A stretch of DNA of 64,000 bases from Narcine bancroftii. Its lineage: Eukaryota. The notes under the pieces were generated by a model. It did not search any database, was not told the DNA's origin, and saw only the letters and a list, made by a program, of their open reading frames with translations. Positions 7,895 to 62,256 of the stretch are shown here, piece after piece. Numbering within the stretch: the first letter of the stretch is position 1; each line of letters opens with the position of its first letter. The position numbers and the translations under genes are program-made. The DNA lies in NCBI RefSeq assembly GCF_036971445.1, contig NC_091474.1:151404001-151468000 (forward strand), in the 5' to 3' direction.

Positions 7895-8263
7895 GAAAAT
7901 CTCAATCTTTTTCTTTCCACTCACATACCACTTTAAGTATTCTCTATGTCATAGGTGGTCTGTAATTCATAAGGGATTGCTTAAGGTAGTATGTGGGTGG
8001 AAAGAGTTTGAAAACCACTGTTTTAATTGTACCTAATTGACTCGTTACGTGCATGGTTTCGTAACTCCAAAGGAAATGGGCCAATGACAATTTTTCTCAA
8101 GCAAAATATTTCAGTAACAATTGTGTCTAGAGGTGTGATTCTCAACCTTCCCTGCTCACTCACATACCACCTTAAGTAATCCCTTACTAATCACAGAGCA
8201 CATATAGCACAGGGAATACTTAAAGTGGTATGTGAGTGGAAAGAAGCAGGTTGAGAACCACTG
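7895..8263. mobile_element. Composite double-hairpin hAT-type MITE (copy 1 of 3)
   Basis: Two ~130-bp palindromic modules (CACTCACATACCAC.TTAAG...CTTAAGGTGGTATGTG), each ending GAAAACCACTG or GAGAACCACTG, joined by a shared ~115-bp spacer. Confidence 0.8.
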
Positions 8264-29959: not shown

Positions 29960-32175
29960 CCGGGGGGAGGGGGGTGTTTAAACTAAATTTGCAAGAGAAT
30001 GGGAACCAGAGGATCAGAACAGATAGAGGAGTAAAGGAAGGAAAAGATGATATGAAAATTGCATGTAATGTGATAAGTCAATGGGTTGTACAAGGTGGAA
30101 ATGTTTTCTGGTGAATCTATTTCAATGTAAGAGGTATTGTAGAAAAGCAGATGAGCTTAGAGCGTGAATTGGTGCATGGAATGATGACATTGTGGCCATT
30201 AGTGAAACTTGGTTGCAGGAGGGGCTGGACTGGCAGCTCAATGTTCCATGCTTCTGTTTTTTTCAGATACGATAGAACGGGGTTGGGGGGAAGGGGATGA
30301 AAGTGGTAGGAGTGAAATTACTCATCAAGGAAAATATCAGGCACGATAGACCAGTGAGCCCATCTAAAGAAGTTATATGGGTGGAGCTGAGGAATGGGAA
30401 AGGTACACCATACTCATGGGGTTGTATTATAGACCAACAAATAGTCAATGAGACTTGGAGGAGCAAATTTGTAGACAGATAGCAGACAACTGCAGGAAAC
30501 AATAGTGGGAGATTTTATACTGTAAAGGGGCTGGATGGCTTGGACTTTGTCAAATTTGTGTCAGGAATTTTTTGTAAATATAAAGAGGTATGAATTAGAT
30601 CAGTAGTTTTCAAACTGTCCCCTCTAAACTCACATTTCACCTTAAGCAATCCTGATACCATTGGTGCTCTGTGCTTAGTAAGGGATTGCTTAAGGTGGTA
30701 TGTGAGTGGGAAGGGAAGGATGAGAACCACTGCTCTAGACTCAGTTGTTATTGAAATGTTTTGCTTGAGAAAAATTGTCTTTGGCCCAATGCCTTTGGAG
30801 TTATGAAACCATACACATAACGAGTCAATTAGGTTCAATTAAAACAGTGGTTTTCAAACCTTTTTCTTTCCATTCACCTACCACCTTAAGCAATCCCTTG
30901 CTAATCACAGAGCACTTATGGCATAGGGAATACTTAAAGTGGAATGTGAGTTTAGGGGGGGGGGAAGTTACTGGATGTTCACTTAGGGAATGAGACAGGA
31001 CAGACGACAGAGTATGTGCCGGGTAAAATTTTAGGTCTTGTGATCATAATGCCATTAGATTCATGTTAATTATGAAGAAGGATGGGTCTGGGTTGAGATT
31101 CTAAAGGCCAATTCTGAGGAAATGAGAAAGCATCTAGAATGCATGGATTAGGATAAGTTGTTTTCGGACAAGGATGTGTGAAGTAAGTGGAGGACCTTCA
31201 AAGGTAAAATTTTGATAGCATAGAGTTTGTATGTTCCTGTCAGAATTAAAGCCAAAGTTAGCAAGCACAAGGAATATTGATTTTCGAGGGATAGAGGTGA
31301 ACTGGTTTGGAAGAGGTATAGTAGGTATAGACAACATGGAACAAACAAGGTACTTGAGGAGTATAAAAATGCACAAAAAACCACAAGAAATCAGGAAGGC
31401 TAAAGGAAATCATGAGGTTGCTTTGGCACACAATGTGAAGGAAAATCCTAAGGGTCTCAACAGGTATATTAAGACAAAATTGGTCCCCTAGAAGATCAAG
31501 TGGTCGACTTTGTATGGAGCCAAAAGAGATGGAGGAGACCTTAATTTTTTTCCCCAATCAGTATTCACGCAGAAGACTGACTCATGGACAGTAAAGAAAA
31601 CAAGCAGTGAGGTCATGAAATCTATACAGATTAAAGAGGAGGAGGTGCTTGCTGTCTTAAAGCAAACAAGGGTGGATAAATCCCCAGGGCCTAACAAGAT
31701 ATTCCCTTGGACTTTAAGGGAGGCTAATGTTTACAGGGATGTTGCCTGGACTTCAGGAACTGAGTTACAGAGAAAGGTTAAGCAGGTTAGGATTTTATTT
31801 CCTGGAGCATAGAATGAGGGGAAATTTGATAGAGGTATTTACAATTGTAAGTGGTCAAGACAGAGTAAATATAGGTGGCTTTTTCCACTGAGGCGAGGTG
31901 AGATACAAACCAGGGGATGTAGGTTAAGGATTAAAGGAGAAAAGTTTAGGAGGAACTACTTCACACAGAGAGTGGTGAGAGTGTGGGACAAGCTGCCAGC
32001 TGAAGTAGTGAATGCAGGTTCAATTTTTACATTTAAGAAGAATTTGGACAGGTATATGGATGGGAAAGGTATGGAGGGCTATTGGCTGGTTGCAAGCCAG
32101 TGGGACTTGGCAGAATTATAGACAGACTAGAAGGGCCAAAGGTGCCTGATTTTGTACTGTAATATTCTATGGTTC
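29960..32175 (+). mobile_element. Decayed CR1 (endonuclease region to 3' end, RT deleted), interrupted by a MITE
   Basis: Motifs DIVAISETWLQ, EVIWVELRNGKG, DKSPGP and FTQRVVRVW, ending in a TTCTATG tail. Confidence 0.82.
30601..30968. mobile_element. Composite double-hairpin hAT-type MITE (copy 2 of 3, opposite orientation)
   Basis: Begins CAGTAGTTTTCAAAC. Has the same two palindromic modules, with the spacer reverse-complemented relative to 7895-8263. Confidence 0.8.
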
Positions 32176-36286: not shown

Positions 36287-36484
36287 TGTAGTGAACTGGG
36301 AATTCACGACTGATGTGATGTCCTAAGGACTGGCTTCTCCCCCAACTCTGTCCCTGCATATCCTGATATAAACCCTGGATCCCTACCAAACCCCAGTTCA
36401 GTCCAAAGACTATTGTGTGTTATTCTTACTGAATAAAAGTGTGTGGTAATCTCTCTTGTCTTGAGTGCTCTCAGTCGCGCTACA
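36287..36484 (+). promoter_or_regulatory. 5' LTR of Gypsy A with TATA, Inr-like and poly(A) signals
   Basis: TGTAG...CTACA termini, TATAAA 36367-36372, TCAGTC 36398-36403, AATAAA 36432-36437. Confidence 0.8.
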
Positions 36485-38773
36485 ATTTTATTCAGTAGAG
36501 GATGGAAGCTCTGTTGAACACAATGCCGCTCCTAATTGACTCTGTCCCCAGAGGAATTCACATACTGGCTTCCAAATGGACGTGGAAGGCATACAAATGG
36601 ACTACTTCATGGATGAACTCAAGACATCAGCGCTCCTTTCACACATCAGACCTAAAGGATTCCCAACCATCAGGGACTGGACTACTTATGAATTGGCCAT
36701 CGAAAGGCTGAAAGATCGCTACATGAGGCCCCGAAATGTCATCCTGGGAAGACATCAGCTCTCACAACGGAAGCAGCAACCTAGTGAGTCCATTGAAGTT
36801 TTTGTCCTCATCCTACAAGCATTTGCGAGGAACTGAGGGAACGAAGATGGCTCGGCCTGAGAATGGGAAGACAAGCAGATCTGGGAAGCTCTTGTCAGTG
36901 GTGTGAGGTCCAAGTACATCAGGCAACAGTTGCTGGAGCAAGGCAGCACGGTGCTGTCTGACAACGTGTGACTGGCCAAGTCACTGAAGATGGTTGAACT
37001 GGGAGCTGATAACCTGGAAGGCGACGGCCTACAGTACCAAGGGATGCTTTTTCTGCAGTCAATGTCCTGCTAAAGACTCCATCTGCTCCATTTGTGGTAA
37101 GAAGGGGCACAGGGTGAGGGTCTGCAGGGCGAGGGGGAGTACTGAGAGGTCCAACGCATGTGTGACCCCCATGTGTGACTGAGGTGAGTCCAAAGCCCAA
37201 TCCCATGACCTCCCAATGCCAGTGTTGTGTGCCATGGCCTTCTTGTGGGGCTGCACAGTGAGGGCAGCGATGCGGGAAACCCCAGCGGCCATCTATCCAC
37301 ATTTTGAATCTGGTGTCATTCTCATCAGATGAGGAGGGAGAGCAGCCATATTGTCACATTGCTTGGTCTCTGCCATCTTGCCAGTTTTCAAAATCGGCAC
37401 CAGCAGAAGGAGAGTGGCCATCTTGCTGCACTTTGTGGCCCCCGCCATCTTGCCGACCTGACAATCTGTAAGGGGGGAGCAACCCCAGTGAGGGGAATGA
37501 CTGCATCTCTGGAGTCCTGGCAATGATGGTGTTGGACCAGGAGATACCTCACCAACTGAACAATTCCACGATCAAGGTGGGAGTTAACCGACATAAACTG
37601 AAATTTTTAATTGACCCTGGTTCGACTGAGAGCTTCACAGATGCAGAGACAGTCCAAAAACTTAAAGTGTACCCTTCTAATTATTGTATTTTTTTAGCAT
37701 TCCATATGCAGTCTGTAAATATTCAAGAACATTGTATAGTTCATTTATCTTTGCAGGAGGGGGAAATTCTGTAAATTCAGAATGTATACACTTAAGAATT
37801 TATGTGCACTGGCTTCTAAAAATGTGACCCTGGAGTATTCTGGTCCTCGTCCCCCCCATTACGGTTCGGAGCAGAAGGCCCCAAAATTCTGATGCCTCTT
37901 GTTGTTTCTCCAAACTGAATATAGATCCACCTCCACTGTTCCCAAATCTGAGTGCTGATTGCAGACCAATTGCTATGAAAAGCAGGCGCTATAGTGCAGA
38001 GAACTGGGCATTCATCAAGGCTGAGACACAGGCACTGCTTGATGAGAACATTATCGAGCACAGTACCAGTCCATGGAGAGCTCAGGTAGTTGTGGTAAAG
38101 GGGGAAGAAAGGTCCAGGTGAGTAATTGGCTATAACCAAATTATTATTCATTTTACACTCCTGGATGCATACCCCCTCCCTCGTATTTTGGACATGGTGA
38201 ATAAAATTGCGCAGTATAAAGTTTATTCAACCATTGACCTTAAAACTGTTTACCATCAATCCATTCTGAGTACTGTCCCTACACGGCTTTTGAGGCTAAT
38301 GGGAGACTCTATCAGTTTCAGACAGTTCCATTTGGTATCACAAATGGGGTCTCAATCTTCCAGAGACAAATGGACCAAATGGTAGACAAATTTAAGTTAA
38401 AGGCCACCTTCCCCTACCTCAACAACACTACCATTTGTGGCCACTCTCTGGAGGACCGTGACACCAATTTCCAGAATTTTCTTCATGCAGCAGAGGCCCG
38501 GAACCTTACTTACAACACCAGTGTTCAGGGCTAAACCCCTAGCTATATTGGGCTGCGTGGTTGAGAATGGCATCACTGGCCACGTCCCCAACAGGATGCA
38601 CCCCCTGTTGGAACTCCCAATCCCGAGAACCACAAAAGCTCTGAGGAGGTGCCTGGGCTTCTTCTCATATTATGCCCAGCGGGTACCTCAAGATGCAGAC
38701 AAGTTTCTTAAAAACCACCCTCTTCCCACTGGCAGGTGAAGCTCAAAATCCTTTCAACTATGTCAGAAGCCAC

Positions 38774-40565
38774 GTTTTTTAAATTTTTTTTTAAATTTTT
38801 TCACACTATGAACCATATTGACCAAAATACACACAAACATTTCCCTCTTGAATATACACAGTGTCATTTTCTCCCCTTCCCCCCCCCCCCACTCACTCAA
38901 CGTTCAACATATACAATACATCAAATCCATTAAACAATGTCATCACACAATGAAAATAAACAAGAAATTTGTGTCTTCTACTTTTACATACTGGGTCAGT
39001 TCATTTTGTCTTCTTCTCCTTCTGTCATTTTAGGAGGTGGAGGTCCGTGGTAGAACTTCTCTATTGTGTTCCATGTACGGTTCCAAAATTTGTTCAAATA
39101 CTGTGATGTTATTTCTTAAATTATATATTATTTTTTCCAATGGAATACATTTATTCATTTCTATGTACCATTGCTGTATTCTCAGGCTATCTTCTAATTT
39201 CCAGGTTGACATAATACATTTTTTTGCTACAGCTAGGGCTATCATAATAAATCTTTTTTGTGCTCCATCCAAATCGAGTCCAAGTTATATTACTTAGAAG
39301 AAAGATCTCTGGATTTTTTGGTATGTTGCTTTTTGTGATTTTATTTAATACCTAGTTTAGATCTTCCCAAAACTTTTCCACTTTCTCACATGCCCAAATT
39401 GCATGTACTGTTGTTCCCGTTTCCTTCTTACAACGAAAACATCTGTCTGATACTGTTGGGTCCCATTCATTTAACTTTTGGGGCATGGTGTATAGCCTGT
39501 GTAACCAATTATATTGTATCATGCGTAACCTTGTGTTTATTGTATTGCTCATAGTTCCAGAGCATAGCTTTTCCCGTATTTCATTTTTTATCTTTATGTT
39601 TAGATCTTGTTCCCATTTTTGTTTGGGTTTACAGCTTGTTTCCTCGATCTCTTTCTCTTGCAGTTTGATGTACATGTTTGTTATAAATCTTTTAATTATC
39701 ATTGTGTCTGTAATCACATATTCAAAATTGCTTCCTTCTGGTAACATCAGTCTGCTTCCCAATTTGTCCTTCAAGTAGGTTTTCAGTTGGTGGAACGCAG
39801 ACATTGTACCATGAGTTATACCATATTTGCCCTTCATTTGTTCAAAAGATAATAATTTATTTCCCGAAAAACAATTTTCTATTCTTTTGATCCCTTTTCT
39901 CTCCTATTCTCTAAAGGAAAGGTTATCTATTGTGAAAGGGATTAGTTGATTTTGCGTCAATATTAATTTTGGTAGATGATAATTTGTTTTATTCCTTTCT
40001 ACGTGAATCTTCATCCAAATGTTGAGCAGATGGTGCAGTACTGGTGAATTCCTATGTTGCACCAACTTTTCATCCTACTTATGTAGTATATGTTCAGGTA
40101 CCTTCTCCCCTATTTTATCTAGCTCTAATCTGGTCCAATCTGGTTTTTCCCTTGTTTGATAAAAATCTGATAGGTATCTTAATTGTGCTGCTCTATATTA
40201 ATTCTAAAAGTTTGGTAGCTGTAAGCCCCCTTGTTTGTACCATTCTGTTAATTTATCTAGCGCTATCCTCAGTTTCCCCCCTTTCCATAAGAATTTCCTT
40301 ATTATTTTCTTTAGCTCCTTGAAGAATTTCTCTGTTAGGTGAATTGGTAATGATTGAAATAGGTATTGTATCCTTGGGAAGATATTAATTTTAATGCAAT
40401 TTACCCTTCCTATCAGTGTTAGTGATAAGTCTTTCCAGTGTTCTAAGTCGTCTTGTAATTTCTTCATTAATGGCTGATAATTTAATTTGTATAGATGGCC
40501 TAGTTTATTATCTAGTTGTATACCTAAGTATCGAATTGCTTGTGTTTGCCATCTAAATGGTGATT
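38774..40565 (-). mobile_element. 5'-truncated L1-clade LINE inserted in the pol gene of Gypsy A
   Basis: ORF2 fragments (YLGI, GRVNCIKINIFPR, CFRC..HAIWAC) and an A-rich tail at ~38775-38810. 9-bp TSD AGAAGCCAC at 38765-38773 and 40566-40574. Gypsy pol resumes in register after the insertion. Confidence 0.93.
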
Positions 40566-43500
40566 AGAAGCCACATTGTGAAGCCAACTATGCATGTGAT
40601 GGACGAGAATGTACCTTTCCAGGTGGAAAGTGATGCTTCAGATGTAGCCCTGGCTGCAACCCTTAATTAGGCAGGTAGGCCAGTTGTATTTTTTTCCCCA
40701 GGACCCTACAAGTTCACGAACTTAGGAACCCATCAGTGGAGAAAGAGGCTCAAGCCATTGTGGAGGCCATGAGGCACTGGAGGAACTACCTGGTGCATGG
40801 AAAATTCACACTCCTCACAGACCAGCGATTGGTAGCATTCATGTTCAATAATACAAAACAGGTAAAAATTAAAAATGATAAAATCGCTCAGTGGAAGATC
40901 AAACAGCTATGATATATTCTACTGACCTGGTTCCCTCAATAAGCCTCCAGATGCCCTGTCCAGAGGAAGATGTGCCTTTGCACACACCGGCCAGTGGTGG
41001 TCACTGCACAATGAGTTCTGCCACCCAGGCCTCTTGCGAATGGCTCACTTTGTCACAGAACGCAATTTACCTTACTCAATTGATCTTAGCAGAAAAATGA
41101 CCAGGTCTTGCCAGGTCTGTGCTGAGTGCAAGCCGCACTTCTACTGCCCCAGCAAAGCACACCTCATAAAGGCATCCTTCGATCAACTCATTGTTGATTT
41201 CAAGGCACACCTCCCTTCCATGAATGGGAATGTGTACTTCCTCACAGTCATCGATGAGTACTCTCATTTCCCATTCGCCGTTACCTGCCCGGAAACGTCC
41301 ACGCCATCTGTCATTAGGGCCCAAGACTCCATTTTCTCCCTGTTTGGGTATCCCAGCTATATCCATAGTGACTGGGGCTCTATGAGCGAGGAGCTGCATC
41401 AGTTTCTGCTGGTAAGGGTTATTGCATCCAGCAGGACAAGCTACAACCCCCGGGGGAACAGACAGGTTGAAAAGGAGAATGCTATGGTTTGGACGGCTGT
41501 AAAATTGGCCCTCCAGTCCAGGCTCACACTGGCAGGATGTCCTACCCATGGCACTCCACTCCATTAGGTCGCTACTCTGCACTGCAATTTCTCATGAGCT
41601 GATCTTTTCTTTCAAGAGAAAGTCAACGTCAGGGACACCCTCCCGATTTGGCTTACAGCACCAGGACCAGTGCAGCTTCGAAAGTACGTGAGGAGGAGCA
41701 AAACTCATCCCCTGGTCGAGGGAGTGCACCTACTCCATGGCAACCCCATATATGCCTACATGGCATACCCAGATGGCAGCGAGGACACTGTCTCAATCAG
41801 ACCTGGCACTTGCCATAACTGAGGGTCCATCACCTCAAGGGAGCCAGGACCTACCTAGGGTCAGGAAACACCAAGGGGCTCAGGTGAGATGATTCAGGAA
41901 GTGGTTCCAGCCAACCCTCAATCAGAGCTGAACCACCCATGTCCTGAGGACATGGAACCACAGGTGGATCAGGAGGTCCAGAGCCCACCCGCACTATGGC
42001 ACTCTGCCCACATCTCTAGGCTTCCTAACAGGTTGAACTTGTAAATATTGTAATTTTTTTTTCTATGGCTATACTATGTTCTCTCTTTCACCTGCAGGCA
42101 TCATTCTAAGGGGAGGGGTGAGTGTAGTGAACTGGGAATTCACTACTGATGTGATGTCCTAAGGACTGGCTCCTCCCCGCATATCCCGATATAAACCCTG
42201 GATCCCCGCCAAAACCCCAGTTCAGTCCAAAGACTATTGTGTGTTATTCTTACTGATTAAATGTGTGTTGTATTCTCTCTGGTCTTGAGTGCTCTCAGTC
42301 GTGCTTGTGGCATTAATTTTCTTATTTTTTATCTTTGTACAAAGGATTAAACATTGGAAGACATTATTGCCAATGTTGAGATACTGGTATTACAGCCACC
42401 AACATTTTACATGCAATATTTTTTATTTAATTTTAATAGTGCTGCCAAGTTACTTTACACAACAAGCATTTCATACTTGTATTGACATCCATTTTAAAAA
42501 TTGTTTCTTCATTATGCTTCTGAACTCAAGTGTGATACAGATAGTGATGGATCATAGACTGGATATTTCAGCAAAATTAAAAGTTGTTATGTTGGGAGGA
42601 TTTTCTTCCTTTATAATTTACTCCACATACTAGCTTTCTGCAATGCAGTTCCTCAGAAAAGTTGCAGGAGATCCTCCATAAAGGAAGTTTTAGAGCGAAC
42701 TACTCAAACCTGGACCTCCTGACTATAATAAAGTAACTTTAAAATACTCTGCTTATTGGTAGGCTTAGATACAAATTCTGCCCAAGGGAAAAAAAAGATT
42801 GGACTAGTGCCATTTAGTTAAAATATTTTATCTTGCCTCCATGTTCCTTTGATGTTATTTTGGGAATTCATGATATATTTAAATTGCCAGGTGAAATTAC
42901 CAAGCAGGCACAACTTTGGACAAAAACCGCACTCCCTTATGTTGCCTACTGCAAACCAGCAAATCATGAAATTTAGTCAATCTACAGAAAGATCACAGGA
43001 AAAAGATCACTGCAACTTCCCTGTCATTTAACAAGTGACTGAAAACTGCTACTTGGGTATCTTATCAGCTGCACAGACTATTAGTCATGTCCCACTCCAA
43101 AAATTATGTCAATGTAGGGAAAGATGTGTGTGTATTGGGGGAAGGGTGGTGGCTTTGTTGAGGTTAATCTTTCCCTTGTTGAGCTGTCCTCACCCAATGA
43201 CTTCTTCTTCATTCAATAAAGCCGGGATCTTTTCTGTTCTCACATTTGCCTCTAATACATTCAGCTTTGTTTACGTTAGCTTCAATGTTAATATAGAAAA
43301 TTTGAAAGAAAATTAAATTTAAAACTCCATCTTACACAACATTATTAGCAAAATTCAACGTTTTTAATCATATGATAGTAAATTGGTGGTTCTGAAAACT
43401 CTTGCATTAATACTGATAAATAATGATGGGGATAATTTGACTGATTTTAATTGAAATTCTTTGACTTAAGTATCAATGGAAAAAATTGACTTACGGAATT

Positions 43501-51990: not shown

Positions 51991-53156
51991 TAGCTGAAGA
52001 TGCAGGAAAAAAGCACTCTGCGTGGAATCCTGAATTGATGTTGACGTTCCAGAGAAGAGAAGTAAAAACAAGTAGCCTCAACTCCAGCTACAAGTTCTTG
52101 AAATCCTTGTTTAAACAAGTGCATATTGTCCTTATGCAAGGGGAACAGGTGGATGAAACCCTAATGCCAAAAGGAAGCCCTATCTGAACCAAAGGGAACT
52201 TGTCAATGCAGAAGGAAGAGCAACTTTCCTCTTTCACTCATTGGGAATTTAGGAATGGGGACAAGTTGGTAAAGGAGGCAAGAAATAACAGTGTACATTC
52301 ATGAGGAATATTGGAAATGTCAATCCTTTCAGAATTGCTAAAGCACTTGCATAATTTTTAAAAAGAGGCAGATTTATTGAAAATCTGAAGCTTGGACATG
52401 CATGAATTATTGCCCAAAGCAGATGAGGTGCAAAATATTAGCTGGAAAGCATCGTGTGCTCTGATAACGCCACCAAGCCAAGCTTGAACATCATGGTCCT
52501 TATTATTAACAAAACTCTTTTGTGATTAGTTTCAACCAATTATATTTTATCAAAATGGGACCAGCTTCACAATAAGAAACAGGATATTTAAGCATGTGGA
52601 GAGTTTGAATAATCTTGCAATCAGCAAGAAAAAAAATGAAATAAACACCCTAGTGTAGAAAATAATACAATGGATGAGCAATTGAAGATCGTAGGAAGAA
52701 AATAGTTCTGAAAATTATTTCTTAAATCAATGAGCAACATAAAAACATCAAATGGCAAACAATTGCTCATTCTGTACAACAACACTGATTCAATTAGCAC
52801 CATTCATTCCAATCTCAATTCTGTAATTCTTTTCACGTCTCCTTTTTAAATATTTAGTCAGTTCCCTCCTAAGTAATGTGATGGTCTCCTTGTCAATGTC
52901 CATTTGGAGTAAAAAAAATTCTTCTAACATTCCCTGGGATTTTCCAGTGAATATTCTATGCCAATTATGATCCGTCTCACCACCACAACTTATCACTGCT
53001 TACACTCTGAAGCTCAGAACCACAACTCTGGACCTATTTTAACCTCTTTTCATTGTTTTAATAATAATGAAAAAAACCTTCGTTATAGGGTTGGAGCATG
53101 TGCATGTTATAATTTTAACATTCTAAAAAGTAAAGCCTCCCCACAAATATTATTTC

Positions 53157-53514
53157 AAAGTTTCCCAAACTTTTTCTTTCCACTCACATACCACCTTAAG
53201 TAATCCCTATGCCATAGGTGTTCTGTGATTAGGGATTGCTTAAGGTGGTATGTGGGTGGAAAGAAAAAGTTTGAAAACCACTGTTTTAATCATCCCTCAT
53301 TGACTCGTCATGTGCACGGTTTTAAAATTCCAAAGGAAATGGGCCGATGACAATATTTCTCAAGCAAAATATTTCAGTAATAATTTAGTCTACAGCAGTG
53401 GTTCTCAACATTCCCTTCCCATCTTAAGTAACCCCTTACTAATCACAGAGCACCGATGGCATTGGAATTACTTAAAGTGGGATGTGAGTGGAGAGAAAAA
53501 GTTTGGGAAATCCT
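53157..53514. mobile_element. Composite double-hairpin hAT-type MITE (copy 3 of 3)
   Basis: Same modules and spacer as 7895-8263, with internal CAGTGGTTCTCAAC and GTTTGAAAACCACTG. Confidence 0.8.
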
Positions 53515-57748: not shown

Positions 57749-60700
57749 TGTGGAGCACACAATAATCACATCGACATGATGGAGTGATTAAACGGCTTTA
57801 ATTATCAAAAACCTGAACATTACTGATACACTAACTGGCCAGGTTCCTGGGACAGGAGCAAGTCCAGGTACACCAGGCTTTATTGGGAAATCTGGGGAGG
57901 AGCCAAGGGAGGGGTTAGGGAAGGTCAGGAGGTTTGGACTGGCTAGTCCGTACATCTATGCAAATACCTTTCAGCACATTTACCTCTTCTCTTAGATAAA
58001 ACCCAGTGGGGTGATATGGCGACATAGAGCACATACTGTACTTTATTACATATATACATTCCTCATAGTGTCCATCACAGCTTCAGCCTGCCCAGTGGTC
58101 TCGTGATTCTCTGTAACTTCTGAGGCGCTGGGCGAGCCCCTGTTGTTCCTGCGCCGAGCTGTGTGGGTTGAATTTCGGTTACAGAGCTCTTTTCTGCCTG
58201 TTCGGGTGGGCTCCTTGCTGGTGAGATCTCTGTGGGGCTGGTGACTGGTGCTGGGGGTTATGGGGGGGGGGGGGGGAAGGAATATGTCAAAATCCTGGGA
58301 CGTTGATGGGCGCTGTGTTGATTGTCTGTCTGGTTCTTCTGGGGTCACCTGCTCAGCATTAGTGTACCCTGCCTGGGCAAGGTCTCGTACTGACACCGAG
58401 TCCTCCCTCCCATCCTGGTACTGCACAAATGCTTATTATGGGTATGCGTATACCAGATGCATTTTTCCACCAGGGAATCTATCTTGTTGTGTCTAATAGG
58501 TCTGTGAAGAAGTATTGGCCCCAGAATCATCAGCCAGACTGGTTTCAGATGCCAATCTCCTGGGAAAAGAAAAGTTTCTCCTGGGTGGGGGGGGGGGGGT
58601 GGCATTTGTAGCCGTGAACAGCAAGGACCCGGTAGTGTGCAGTGCATCTGGTAGTACCTCTTGCCATTGGGAGACAGGCATCCCTTTTGACGTGAGGGCC
58701 AACAGGATTGCTCTCCAGATTGTACCATTCTCCCTCTTCACTTGCCCATTCCCGTGGGGGTTGTGGCTAGTAGTTCTGCTCATGGCTGTCCCCACTGCCT
58801 GTAGGTACTGGCGTAGCTCCTGACTCATGAAGGAGAAACCCCTGTCACTGTGTATGTAGCTGGGGTATCCAAACATAGTGAATATGGTCTGAAGTGCTTT
58901 GATGACCATGGCTGCAGTCATGTCCGTACAAGGGATAACAAACGGGAACGGGGAGTACTCATCCACTACATTCAGGAAGTACAGATTTCTGTATTGGATG
59001 GAAGGGGACCCTTGAAGTCCATACTAAGACGTTCGAAGGGAAGGGTTGCCTTAATCAGCTGGGCTCTATCTGGTCTGTAAAAATGTGGTTTACATTCGGC
59101 ACAGATCGAGCAGTTATGGGACAGTTCCCAAATCTCTTCAACTGAGTCGGGTAAATTTCTAGCCCTCACAAAGTAATACAGTTTTGTGACCCCGGGGTGG
59201 CAGAGCTTGCCCTGCAGGAACTCCAGACAATCTGCTGGTATGCTGGCACCTGTTCCCCAGGACAGAGCATCAGGTGGTTCATTAAGCTTCCTGGGCAGTT
59301 CTCATAAATTGTACATGGAGAGTTTGATGATCTTATCATTTTTTATTTTATCCCACTGTTAGTTGTTAAACATAAATGTGATGGCCCTCTGGTCCATCAG
59401 CAGGCTAAATAATACCTCTAGTGGCGCACAGCTTCCACTATGGCCTGCGCCTCTTTCCCAATTGCCGAAAGCTTGAGTTCCAGGCCCTGGAGTGTTCTAG
59501 AGAAAAATGCCACTGGCCTGCCTGCCTGATTCAGTGTGGCTGCTAGGGAAACATCAGAAGCATCATCTTTCCACTTGGAATGGGATGGATTCTTCAATGG
59601 CATGCATCACCGCCTTGGCAATCTCATCCTTGATACCCTCGAAGGATTAACGAGCCTCCGCTGATGGGGGTAAATCTATCGTCTTCACTAATGGCTGGGT
59701 CTTGGGGACCAAATGGGTATAATAGAAAAAGAACCAGAGGCACCTTTTCAGGGCTTTCAGGTTCTGGGGCAATGGTAGATCCTAAGGGTGAGCATTCTCT
59801 CAGGGTCCAGGGACACGATCCCTCCCTCCGCCACCTACCTTTGTATCACCAGCCGTGAAGTGCAGAACATGCACTTCTTCTAATTATACGTTAGTTTTTG
59901 CTGTGGTGAGGAATTCTAAGGGAATTCGTATTCTTCCACATCATGGCTGCATATAGTGACATTATCCAAATACGGGAACATTGCCTTTAGCTTGTGATCA
60001 TCCACCCTGCGGTATATCTCCCTTTGGAACACCGATACCCCATTCGTCAGACTGAATGGCACCCAGCGGAACTGCTACAGTCGGCCATCAGCTTCAAAAG
60101 CCTGTCTTCTGGGCAGGTTGGGATCTGATGGTGTGCTGACAAAGTCTATGGTGGAGAAGACCCGATATTGGGCTATCTCATTCACCATGTCAGCAAGTCA
60201 GGATGGGAGGGTAGGCATCCAGTAATGTAAATCTATTCACAGTCTGGCTGTAGTCAGAACCATCCAGTTTTCCTCCCCCCCCCCCCCCACCCCCACTTTT
60301 ACCACCAACACCCGAGCTCGCCGGGGCTGTTCTTGGGCTCAATGTCACCTTCGGCCAACAGCCTCTGGACTTCAGATTTAGTGAAATGTCTGTCCTCCAG
60401 GCTATATCTCCTGCTTTTGATGGCTATCAGTCTGCAATTATCTGATGTGCTCTAATAGCAGAGGCGAAGGGACCCGAAGTGGGGACAGCTCACACATACT
60501 CACCAGCTTGCTCTCATTGGGTGGGCCAAATTCTTTGTTCTTCCCCGTGATCTGGGGGGGGGGGGGGGGTGGACCGTCAAACTGCATTGTTACACTTTCC
60601 AGCTACACTGGAAGTCTAACCCCAGGATAACCGGCGCACAGAGTTTGGACATTACTGTGATCTTAAAATCCCTGTACTCCCTGCCCTGCACCCTTAAATC

Positions 60701-62256
60701 TACCCGACAGTACCCACACATCTCTGCAGACTGGGCTTTAGATGCCAGGGATATTCACCTTCAGTGCACAATGCTTTATTATGTCTGGGTGGATTAAACC
60801 TTTGGTTCTCCGTGTCAAACAAACACCCCATGATGCAACCCTCTACCTCGCTGTTCATCATTGATCGCGCTAGCTGGTGAGGTCTGTTCTGATCCAGTGT
60901 CACGGAGGCCAGGGTTAGGTCTGATTCAGTCACCATTGTATCATTCCTGTCCGTAATATGTCAGACTCGGCACCTCAGAAGATGACTGCCCCCAGTACTC
61001 ACACATGGCTGGGACCGGAGGTGAAGTTATCGATCGCTGATCCAGAGCTGAAAGTGACATTAACCATCATCGTCTTGGTGACCCGTCAAAGATGGTGACC
61101 CGTCCCTAGGATCACACGTGGAACTGCTGGTAGTGGGCTTCCCCCAGCACACCTTCGCATAGGGCCCTTTCTTTTTGCAATTTGAATACCCTGCGTTCCT
61201 GGCCAGGCAGGATTTCCGGGGGTGCATGGCCAGCCTGCAGAACCTGCACTTGCTGACCCTGGCCATCAGTGCCATATCCATTTGCTGGACCGCCGGCAGT
61301 GTAAGCCTCACAGCTTTGCACCGCAGTATCCATTGTCTCCCCCAAATCCAGTACTCCTTGCAACATACAGTTAATTTTTTTCCAGGAGTCCTTGATGGAC
61401 CTGGTTCGAAAGCATGCTTGGCAGCAGTCTGTTTCACTTCAGCTCATCAGCATACTCGGAGGCACTCACCACGGTACACCACAGAACAACATCAGACCAC
61501 AACCTCTGACCTCAGTCTCCCATAACCAGCTCTCTCATCACCCGTGCGAAATGTGTGAAGGGCTCCCCAGGGGCTTGACACCGGGTCATTAATTTGTACC
61601 TCGCATACATTGGGTTCGTTGGGGTCCCGTTCTGCTTTTGCAGCAGGGCCATCACCTTGTTGTACGTTAGGCAGTCTCTAATTATTCAAAACTCCCGATA
61701 GTTCATGGATGCAAACAGGAGATAGTACTTATCTTCAGCATCCCTTAGGTTGTGGTGGTGCATCCTGTGCAGCCATCTCTCAAAGGCAATGTCTGCGATG
61801 AGCTCCCTGGGTTCAATTGTGAGTGTAGTCAGCTGGCAAACTTCTCCCATTACCCGCTGCAGAGTTGATGCAGACCCCAGGGGGTGTGTCCGCTACTGCA
61901 CCACATGGCTGAGTCGACTTCACCATCTGTGGGCTGGATGATCGGGCATCTTCCAAATCGCTGCTCCCTTGTCCTGTATGTTGAGCTTCCATGGTTTTTG
62001 TTTTGGCCATTAAATTGTGGAGCACATAATAATCACGTCATCATGACGGAGTAATTAAATGGCTTTAATTACCAAAAACCTCAGCAATACTGATACACTA
62101 CTTGGCCAGGTTCCAGGTACAGGAGCAAGAAAGGCCAAGTCCGGGCACGCCAGCCTTTATTGGGAAATCTGGGGAGGAGCCAAGGGAGGAGTTAGGGAAG
62201 GTCAGGGAGGTTCAGACTGGTCAGTCCATACATCTATGCAAATACCTTTCACCACA
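57749..62256 (-). mobile_element. Gypsy/Ty3 LTR retrotransposon B, decayed, near full length
   Basis: LTRs 62016-62256 (5') and 57749-57978 (3'), about 89% similar by eye. Minus-strand PPT AAGAGAAGAGGTAAA. Gag knuckle region CRFC...CKKKGPYAKVC, protease CLFDT, RT FPYLDNVTIC, RNase H DASDVSLAATLNQAGRPVAFFSRTL, integrase DEYS..YIHSDRG..GNGQVKREN. Confidence 0.95.

Follow-up and report, generated by a model that had tools for sequence, protein, structure and literature searches.

Self-complementary primer-binding sites in a clade of animal Gypsy retrotransposons point to priming by the elements' own LTR

How does an LTR retrotransposon start reverse transcription if it carries no binding site for a tRNA? 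Self-priming is the described mark of the Tf1/sushi chromoviruses. As far as the accessible parts of the respective papers go, the first 11 bases of Tf1 pair with its primer-binding site (PBS), and cleavage by RNase H falls between bases 11 and 12 (PMC7175516), in a process that needs a three-duplex structure (PMC10085805). Self-priming has also been predicted from sequence for plant Tcn1 chromoviruses and TAR Ty1/copia elements, in which at least 10 bases behind the 5′ LTR are complementary to the LTR, according to the available text of that study (PMC6317226). The available sections on dictyostelid Skipper describe a polypyrimidine stretch with no LTR complement (PMC5006619), and those on fungal GalEa a hairpin site within the internal region (PMC6934838). 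In the portions of the literature at hand (including PMC3601003, PMC4600332, PMC13524379, PMC2996953 and PMC9873768), self-priming is described only for Tf1/sushi, Tcn1 and plant TAR, with Skipper and GalEa as open cases.

Here, we followed up a decayed Ty3/Gypsy element that spans 36287 to about 42305 in the window, i.e., the entire 64,000-nucleotide stretch of Narcine bancroftii DNA that was analysed (Table 1). Its domain order is that of Gypsy elements, with protease, RT, RNase H and integrase following one another (tblastn on the window, Pfam on intact relatives), and its two LTRs are identical at 170 of 181 aligned bases (94%). The LINE within this element, of which the C-terminal part of ORF2 remains, is flanked by 9-nt repeats AGAAGCCAC (38765 and 40566). 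Elsewhere in the window, at about 7918-8257, 30593-30971 and 53147-53509, lie three copies of a ~340-380 bp sequence that looks like a MITE, having internal palindromes and long inverted repeats at its termini.

Table 1. Features of the two Gypsy elements in the window and what each assignment rests on.
Feature	Position	Strand	Basis or remark
5′ LTR, 198 nt, TG...CA	36287..36484	+	both ends common to family copies
TATA box at 36367-36372 (TATAAA) and Inr-like TCAGTC	36367..36403	+	motif match only
Predicted self-primer segment with AATAAA at 36432-36437	36426..36438	+	12 nt exact in the window copy, 13 in most family copies
Loop, in which 36439-36446 and 36475-36483 would form a second stem on top of the primer helix	36439..36483	+	prediction
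Primer-binding position, complementary to the LTR segment, without TGG	36486..36497	+	sequence
gag-pol remnant (gag, protease, RT, RNase H, integrase)	36502..42043	+	many stops and frameshifts
LINE, 5′-truncated, within the RNase H region	38774..40565	-	label from reading of the translation, not a library match
Polypurine tract	42108..42122	+	family form ends GGGGTGAA
3′ LTR	42123..42305	+	terminal ACA lost, AATAAA mutated
Second Gypsy element, decayed, same clade, other family	57749..62256	-	self-complementary site in ATTAAA form

At the primer-binding position, TTTTATTCAGTA (36486-36497) is the perfect reverse complement, over 12 nt and across a 47-nt loop, of positions 36427-36438, and the pairing begins one spacer base past the LTR end CTACA (36484). 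The first-pass annotation had reported exactly this match, together with an AATAAA inside the paired LTR segment and the absence of a TGG-type tRNA site, all of which the sequence bears out. Its dimensions, however, hold for the 12-nt core only: the helix is in fact longer, ~18 nt with one bulge (36421-36438 with 36486-36504), and the LTR measures 198 nt from its TG. The extended pairing has a fold z of -2.9 in a region that was picked after the fact. A perfect 12-nt complement anywhere in the LTR would arise by chance with a probability of 1.2e-5, and 12-nt inverted repeats with loops below 100 nt occur at only three other places in the window, all of one inverted-repeat family. In most copies of the element's family, hereafter family A, the core pairing comprises 13 nt; in the window copy, 5 nt are deleted from the distal edge.

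Family A was sampled by a DNA search (797 candidates, 40 scored, 30 fetched) and, as a second route, by a pattern anchored outside the paired segments (32 places, 30 fetched). Once 13 duplicates had been taken out, 47 loci were left, and in 34 of them 11 or 12 of the 12 Watson-Crick pairs are retained. The family is old, with LTR pairs of seven other copies being 78-90% identical, and double changes in the paired segments are confined to 2 of 506 cells; one of these is compensatory, where ~0.8 would be expected, i.e., there is no excess. Given its age and the chance-level double changes, family A alone shows conservation, not covariation. The first-pass annotation had proposed a family-wide search for covariation: conservation within the family stood, covariation within it did not, and it is across the clade that compensatory changes appear. 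A targeting of tRNA genes by the clade was considered and rejected, as a tRNA gene accompanied 1 of 60 family A loci, none of 30 young loci and none of 38 other fetched loci. The one copy (L230 / L362) is placed head to head with a tRNA-Cys gene, ~310 bases upstream of it, with no family trend.

Loci of the surrounding clade were collected by protein similarity from the window's genome, from metagenome contigs (80 of 244) and from genome contigs (15), and eight more were picked with a motif that has six of the pairs built in. Of 135 loci inspected, 72 offered 200 bases of sequence ahead of a gag start (six of them motif-picked) and 60 of these 72 a recognisable LTR end. Pairing of the site with the element's own LTR reached at least 11.5 of 13 in 48 of the 60 scorable loci and at least 10.5 in 51, compared to 10 of 600 controls with other families' LTRs and 1 of 1250 with shuffled LTRs that reached 11.5; the 12 loci lacking a recognisable LTR end and the nine low scorers are, by eye, decayed or miss the segment. 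The 51 pairing loci represent 25 site sequences (four motif-picked), and the window's genome has at least eight different ones. Sites start with TTT in 24 types and with TGT in one, and none starts with TGG. Pair positions 1-3 are nearly always A-U, while positions 4-13 are each occupied by two to four Watson-Crick pair types. The self-complementary PBS is thus real, clade-wide and strongly constrained, and the complementarity, whose absence from the family and its relatives would have told against the first-pass annotation, is present in both.

The paired segment ends in AAA followed by GCC or ACC in 21 of the 25 types, and contains A(A/T)TAAA in 18, the hexamer being absent from the other seven; in L073, AATAAA sits 26 nt downstream. 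The five bases 3′ of the segment are predicted to be paired above controls in 19 types (0.64 vs 0.38, p 1e-4, with families not independent of each other); the control kept those five bases fixed, and their partners are a local hairpin or the LTR end. A second example is found in the window itself, where 62077-62064 (then GCC) of the minus-strand element pairs with 62014-62001 through 12 Watson-Crick and one G-U of 14 pairs, again starting one base past the LTR end. Clade elements are 3.8-5.0 kb long with a single gag-pol ORF—a size from which the clade may, at a guess, be Cigr-1—and young relatives such as L368, L370, L078 and L086 have 5-bp target-site duplications. In a comparison with four sister copies, the young metagenome copy L086 displays one segment change in both LTRs and the matching change in the site, with only one other private LTR change, which points to a physical role of the segment as primer. 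Since the primer would be copied into the site, paired changes of the kind seen in this single case could arise without two separate mutations.

A few loci deviate or stand apart. In L203 (about 1230-1480), the LTR next to the site does not contain its complement, a portion of which is located ~200 bases upstream; this LTR has a strong splice-donor motif (GTAAGT), so that a chimera or a splice-made primer is possible. Splice-made primers have been noted for BEL elements. Intron-like signals (donor, polypyrimidine-CAG acceptor) are likewise seen in the LTR upstream of the segment in L084, L133, L094 and L125. The loci L151-L163 are animal Gypsy elements on contigs filed as bacterial metagenome-assembled genomes, and these contigs are therefore probably host contamination.

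One sister family in the window's genome (L166-L195, L256-L335, L366-L370) is very young. It comprises at least 150 near-identical copies, with LTR pairs that are 99.6-100% identical, ORFs of more than 1400 codons in many copies, a variable repeat between gag and protease, and a protein that matches a Narcine bancroftii protein at 100% over 118 residues. Among 110 of the 150 listed copies (109 scored), hardly any variation is seen in the LTR and the 14-base site, whereas the two or three bases beyond the 14-nt helix come in 11 alleles, compared to 0.65 extra alleles per LTR site. Variability at this distal edge recurs in family A and in two metagenome families. In retroviruses and Ty1, strand-transfer junctions are known sites of error, and the hot spot hints at such a junction and at a primer of 13-14 nt. 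Alternatively, slippage could account for the edge alleles, because they adjoin A and T runs. They also track subfamily markers and are inherited with them, which rules out that the edge allele is reset in each cycle. Contigs from four runs guessed to be RNA yielded no transcript start or end and no poly(A) site, and an A-rich loose end in them turned out to be subfamily variation.

Where does the clade belong? In line with the first-pass annotation, no chromodomain was seen in the gag-pol of the window element; neither chromodomain nor SH3_Tf2-1 was found by Pfam in the intact relatives P0017, P0024 and P0010, and among the listed homologues (42 and 120), no Pfam list contains a chromodomain. 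In an RT tree of 51 rows (three loci were omitted as too short), a 99/98 branch has all 32 clade rows together on one side, ten fish elements with a chromodomain form a separate branch (100/100), and rows with integrase before RT or of CsRn1-like type, labelled by domain order and motifs, are apart as well. RT identity between the clade and the fish chromoviruses is 30-35%. As this tree is unrooted and has no rows for Tf1, sushi or Mag, the placement asked of it shows the distance from fish chromoviruses rather than an independent origin. The clade is no member of Tf1/sushi. Its named homologues come from rays and catsharks for the integrase and, for the RT alone (LTRs not seen), from Trichuris, Trichinella, Actinostola, Apostichopus and Styela. 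No relatives were found among viral contigs, the ESM Atlas gave generic RT/RNase H clusters only, and the RT family, when searched against the genome, matched nothing but long stretches of LINE size, which were not used. The same genome also harbours decayed chromovirus-like, integrase-before-RT and CsRn1-like Gypsy elements (L394, L396-L402, L404).

What would such a helix do? The missing tRNA site and the clade-wide compensatory pairing support what the first-pass annotation had suggested, namely tRNA-independent self-priming. Taking all its forms together, we regard Tf1-like self-priming as very probable. Its internal form is the likely one, in which the PBS pairs with a segment of 13-16 nt from the element's own LTR and that segment, rather than a tRNA, is the primer. 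During RNA synthesis, the segment of the 5′ LTR would fold onto the site; the element's RT/RNase H, like that of Tf1, would cut behind the AAA, where the helix has its junction; the resulting 3′ end would prime minus-strand DNA; and strand transfer would proceed via the short sequence that separates the cut from the poly(A) site. The register resembles that of a primer, in that the single spacer base after CA has its counterpart in the AA preceding TG at the polypurine tract, and the predicted pairing of the five bases behind the segment places the predicted cut at a helix junction.

The position of the segment within the transcript separates this reading from its closest competitor. TATA-like and Inr-like motifs, matched loosely and without a shuffle control, are spaced 28-35 nt apart in 17 of 25 loci of the window's genome, which represent several unrelated LTR sequences; the Inr lies 26-48 nt upstream of the segment and the TATA 59-76 nt from it. 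Among 14 loci from other hosts, only one or two have such a pair. For the window element, the TATA box and Inr (A at 36400) assigned by the first-pass annotation hold as motif matches, and a second Inr-like motif would put the start at 36395 instead. With the Inr this far upstream, the primer is predicted to be internal to the transcript, and its capped leader would hang off the primer or be removed. Between Inr and primer, a leader hairpin did not exceed shuffles in any of 11 loci. If, alternatively, the genomic RNA started at the paired segment itself, the primer would be its first 13-16 bases, as in plain Tf1 geometry. The hot spot at the distal edge would fit a primer with a physical 5′ end there, several loci of the window's genome have an additional Inr-like motif 5-8 nt before the segment, and L090 has a TATA-like run ~22-32 nt before it; the 17 loci with a regularly spaced TATA and Inr far upstream nevertheless make this arrangement unlikely.

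The poly(A) signal within the segment raises another option, which is that the helix serves only to hide the 5′ signal and that some other RNA or protein is the primer. The 5′ poly(A) signal of HIV-1 is hidden in a hairpin, which provides a precedent. Moreover, in 18 of 25 types the hexamer is part of the segment, ~32 nt separate the signal of the short LTR from the predicted cap, and selection for masking would be expected to leave compensatory changes, too. Yet seven types, of which some may rely on variant signals, have no hexamer within the segment, and L073 has its AATAAA downstream; masking does not need a start precisely one base past CA; and no alternative primer site remains. The fixed register at the LTR end and the seven exceptional types mean that priming explains more than masking does, and we consider masking alone improbable. 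Of the two possibilities left side by side in the first-pass annotation, self-priming is therefore favoured, and masking is a plausible additional role: the 5′ AAUAAA of the 18 types that carry it there would be covered by this helix too, and as the site is present only behind the 5′ LTR, it would hide that copy only.

About equally improbable is a primer that acts in trans, either the segment copy of the 3′ LTR or a short LTR transcript that ended at the 5′ poly(A) signal, trimmed back as far as the helix. An upstream start would leave the segment at each end of the RNA, and in most types the segment and the poly(A) hexamer share their 3′ end. However, the 5′ copy is just 38-70 nt from the site and should fold first, and a cut in cis would suit the second stem that is conserved at the border. 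Priming by a fragment of a host tRNA or by another small RNA, with the LTR match being incidental, would have a precedent in the half-tRNA priming of some Copia and Helenus families, as given in the available text of two reports (PMC6317226, PMC10886601), but it is close to refuted by the cross-family covariation, given 25 site sequences that each match their own LTR and not the others, at least eight of them in one genome. In an incomplete set of 34 host tRNA genes with 13 anticodon types, from 30 of 52 listed loci, the best match to the site is 3-4 nt.

Self-priming from within the transcript thus remains the preferred reading. More tentatively, we propose that a large clade of animal Gypsy elements—in rays, catsharks, a sea anemone, nematodes, a sea cucumber and a tunicate—may self-prime independently of Tf1/sushi and do so with an internal primer of 13-14 nt that is cut on both sides and is the poly(A) signal itself, so that one helix would turn 5′ polyadenylation off and reverse transcription on. 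If true, this would be a second large self-priming Gypsy clade across animals, whose independence from tRNA arose again or is old; it would place the clade outside control by 3′ tRNA fragments and explain why tools that require a tRNA site have missed it. An internal primer would, in addition, need chemistry that Tf1 lacks. With at least 150 young near-identical copies in the genome, transcript and cDNA ends should be readable directly from host tissue.

How does the clade compare with the systems described so far? By description, it resembles the marine-animal Gypsy clades Mag A/B/C, Cigr-1 and MolGy1-16, which are portrayed in the available parts of two papers as compact single-ORF elements with short LTRs (PMC6238403, PMC8556966), and on these grounds—marine hosts, compactness, short LTRs—it may be one of them. 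The main texts of both papers, as available, make no mention of primer sites, and motifs looked for in five supplementary files of PMC6238403 gave no match. We found no description of self-priming for this clade in the full-text literature searched; an earlier mention elsewhere, for instance in Repbase, GyDB or Butler et al. 2001, is conceivable, if rather unlikely. With Skipper and GalEa, as far as the available accounts reach, the clade shares being an LTR element without a tRNA site, and it differs from both in that its site complements its own LTR, Skipper having no such complement and GalEa an internal hairpin.

Closest in architecture are Tf1, Tf2, Tj1 and the Tf1/sushi group at large, which likewise combine the lack of a tRNA site, a PBS complementary to the own 5′ LTR and the Gypsy domain order, together with an extra duplex between the LTR end and the sequence just behind the primer. 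In contrast to these elements, the clade has neither chromodomain nor SH3_Tf2-1 and occupies an RT branch separate from fish chromoviruses, its primer is predicted to lie inside the transcript instead of being its first 11 bases and usually includes the poly(A) hexamer, and the third duplex of the Tf1 pretzel was not found in 29 loci (-7.9 vs -7.9 kcal/mol, p 0.85). Tcn1 and TAR, in turn, have plant hosts and belong to other lineages, and an overlap with the poly(A) signal is not reported in the available text on them. The evidence for self-priming is, however, of the same type as for the present clade, and these elements illustrate that self-priming can arise outside Tf1/sushi.
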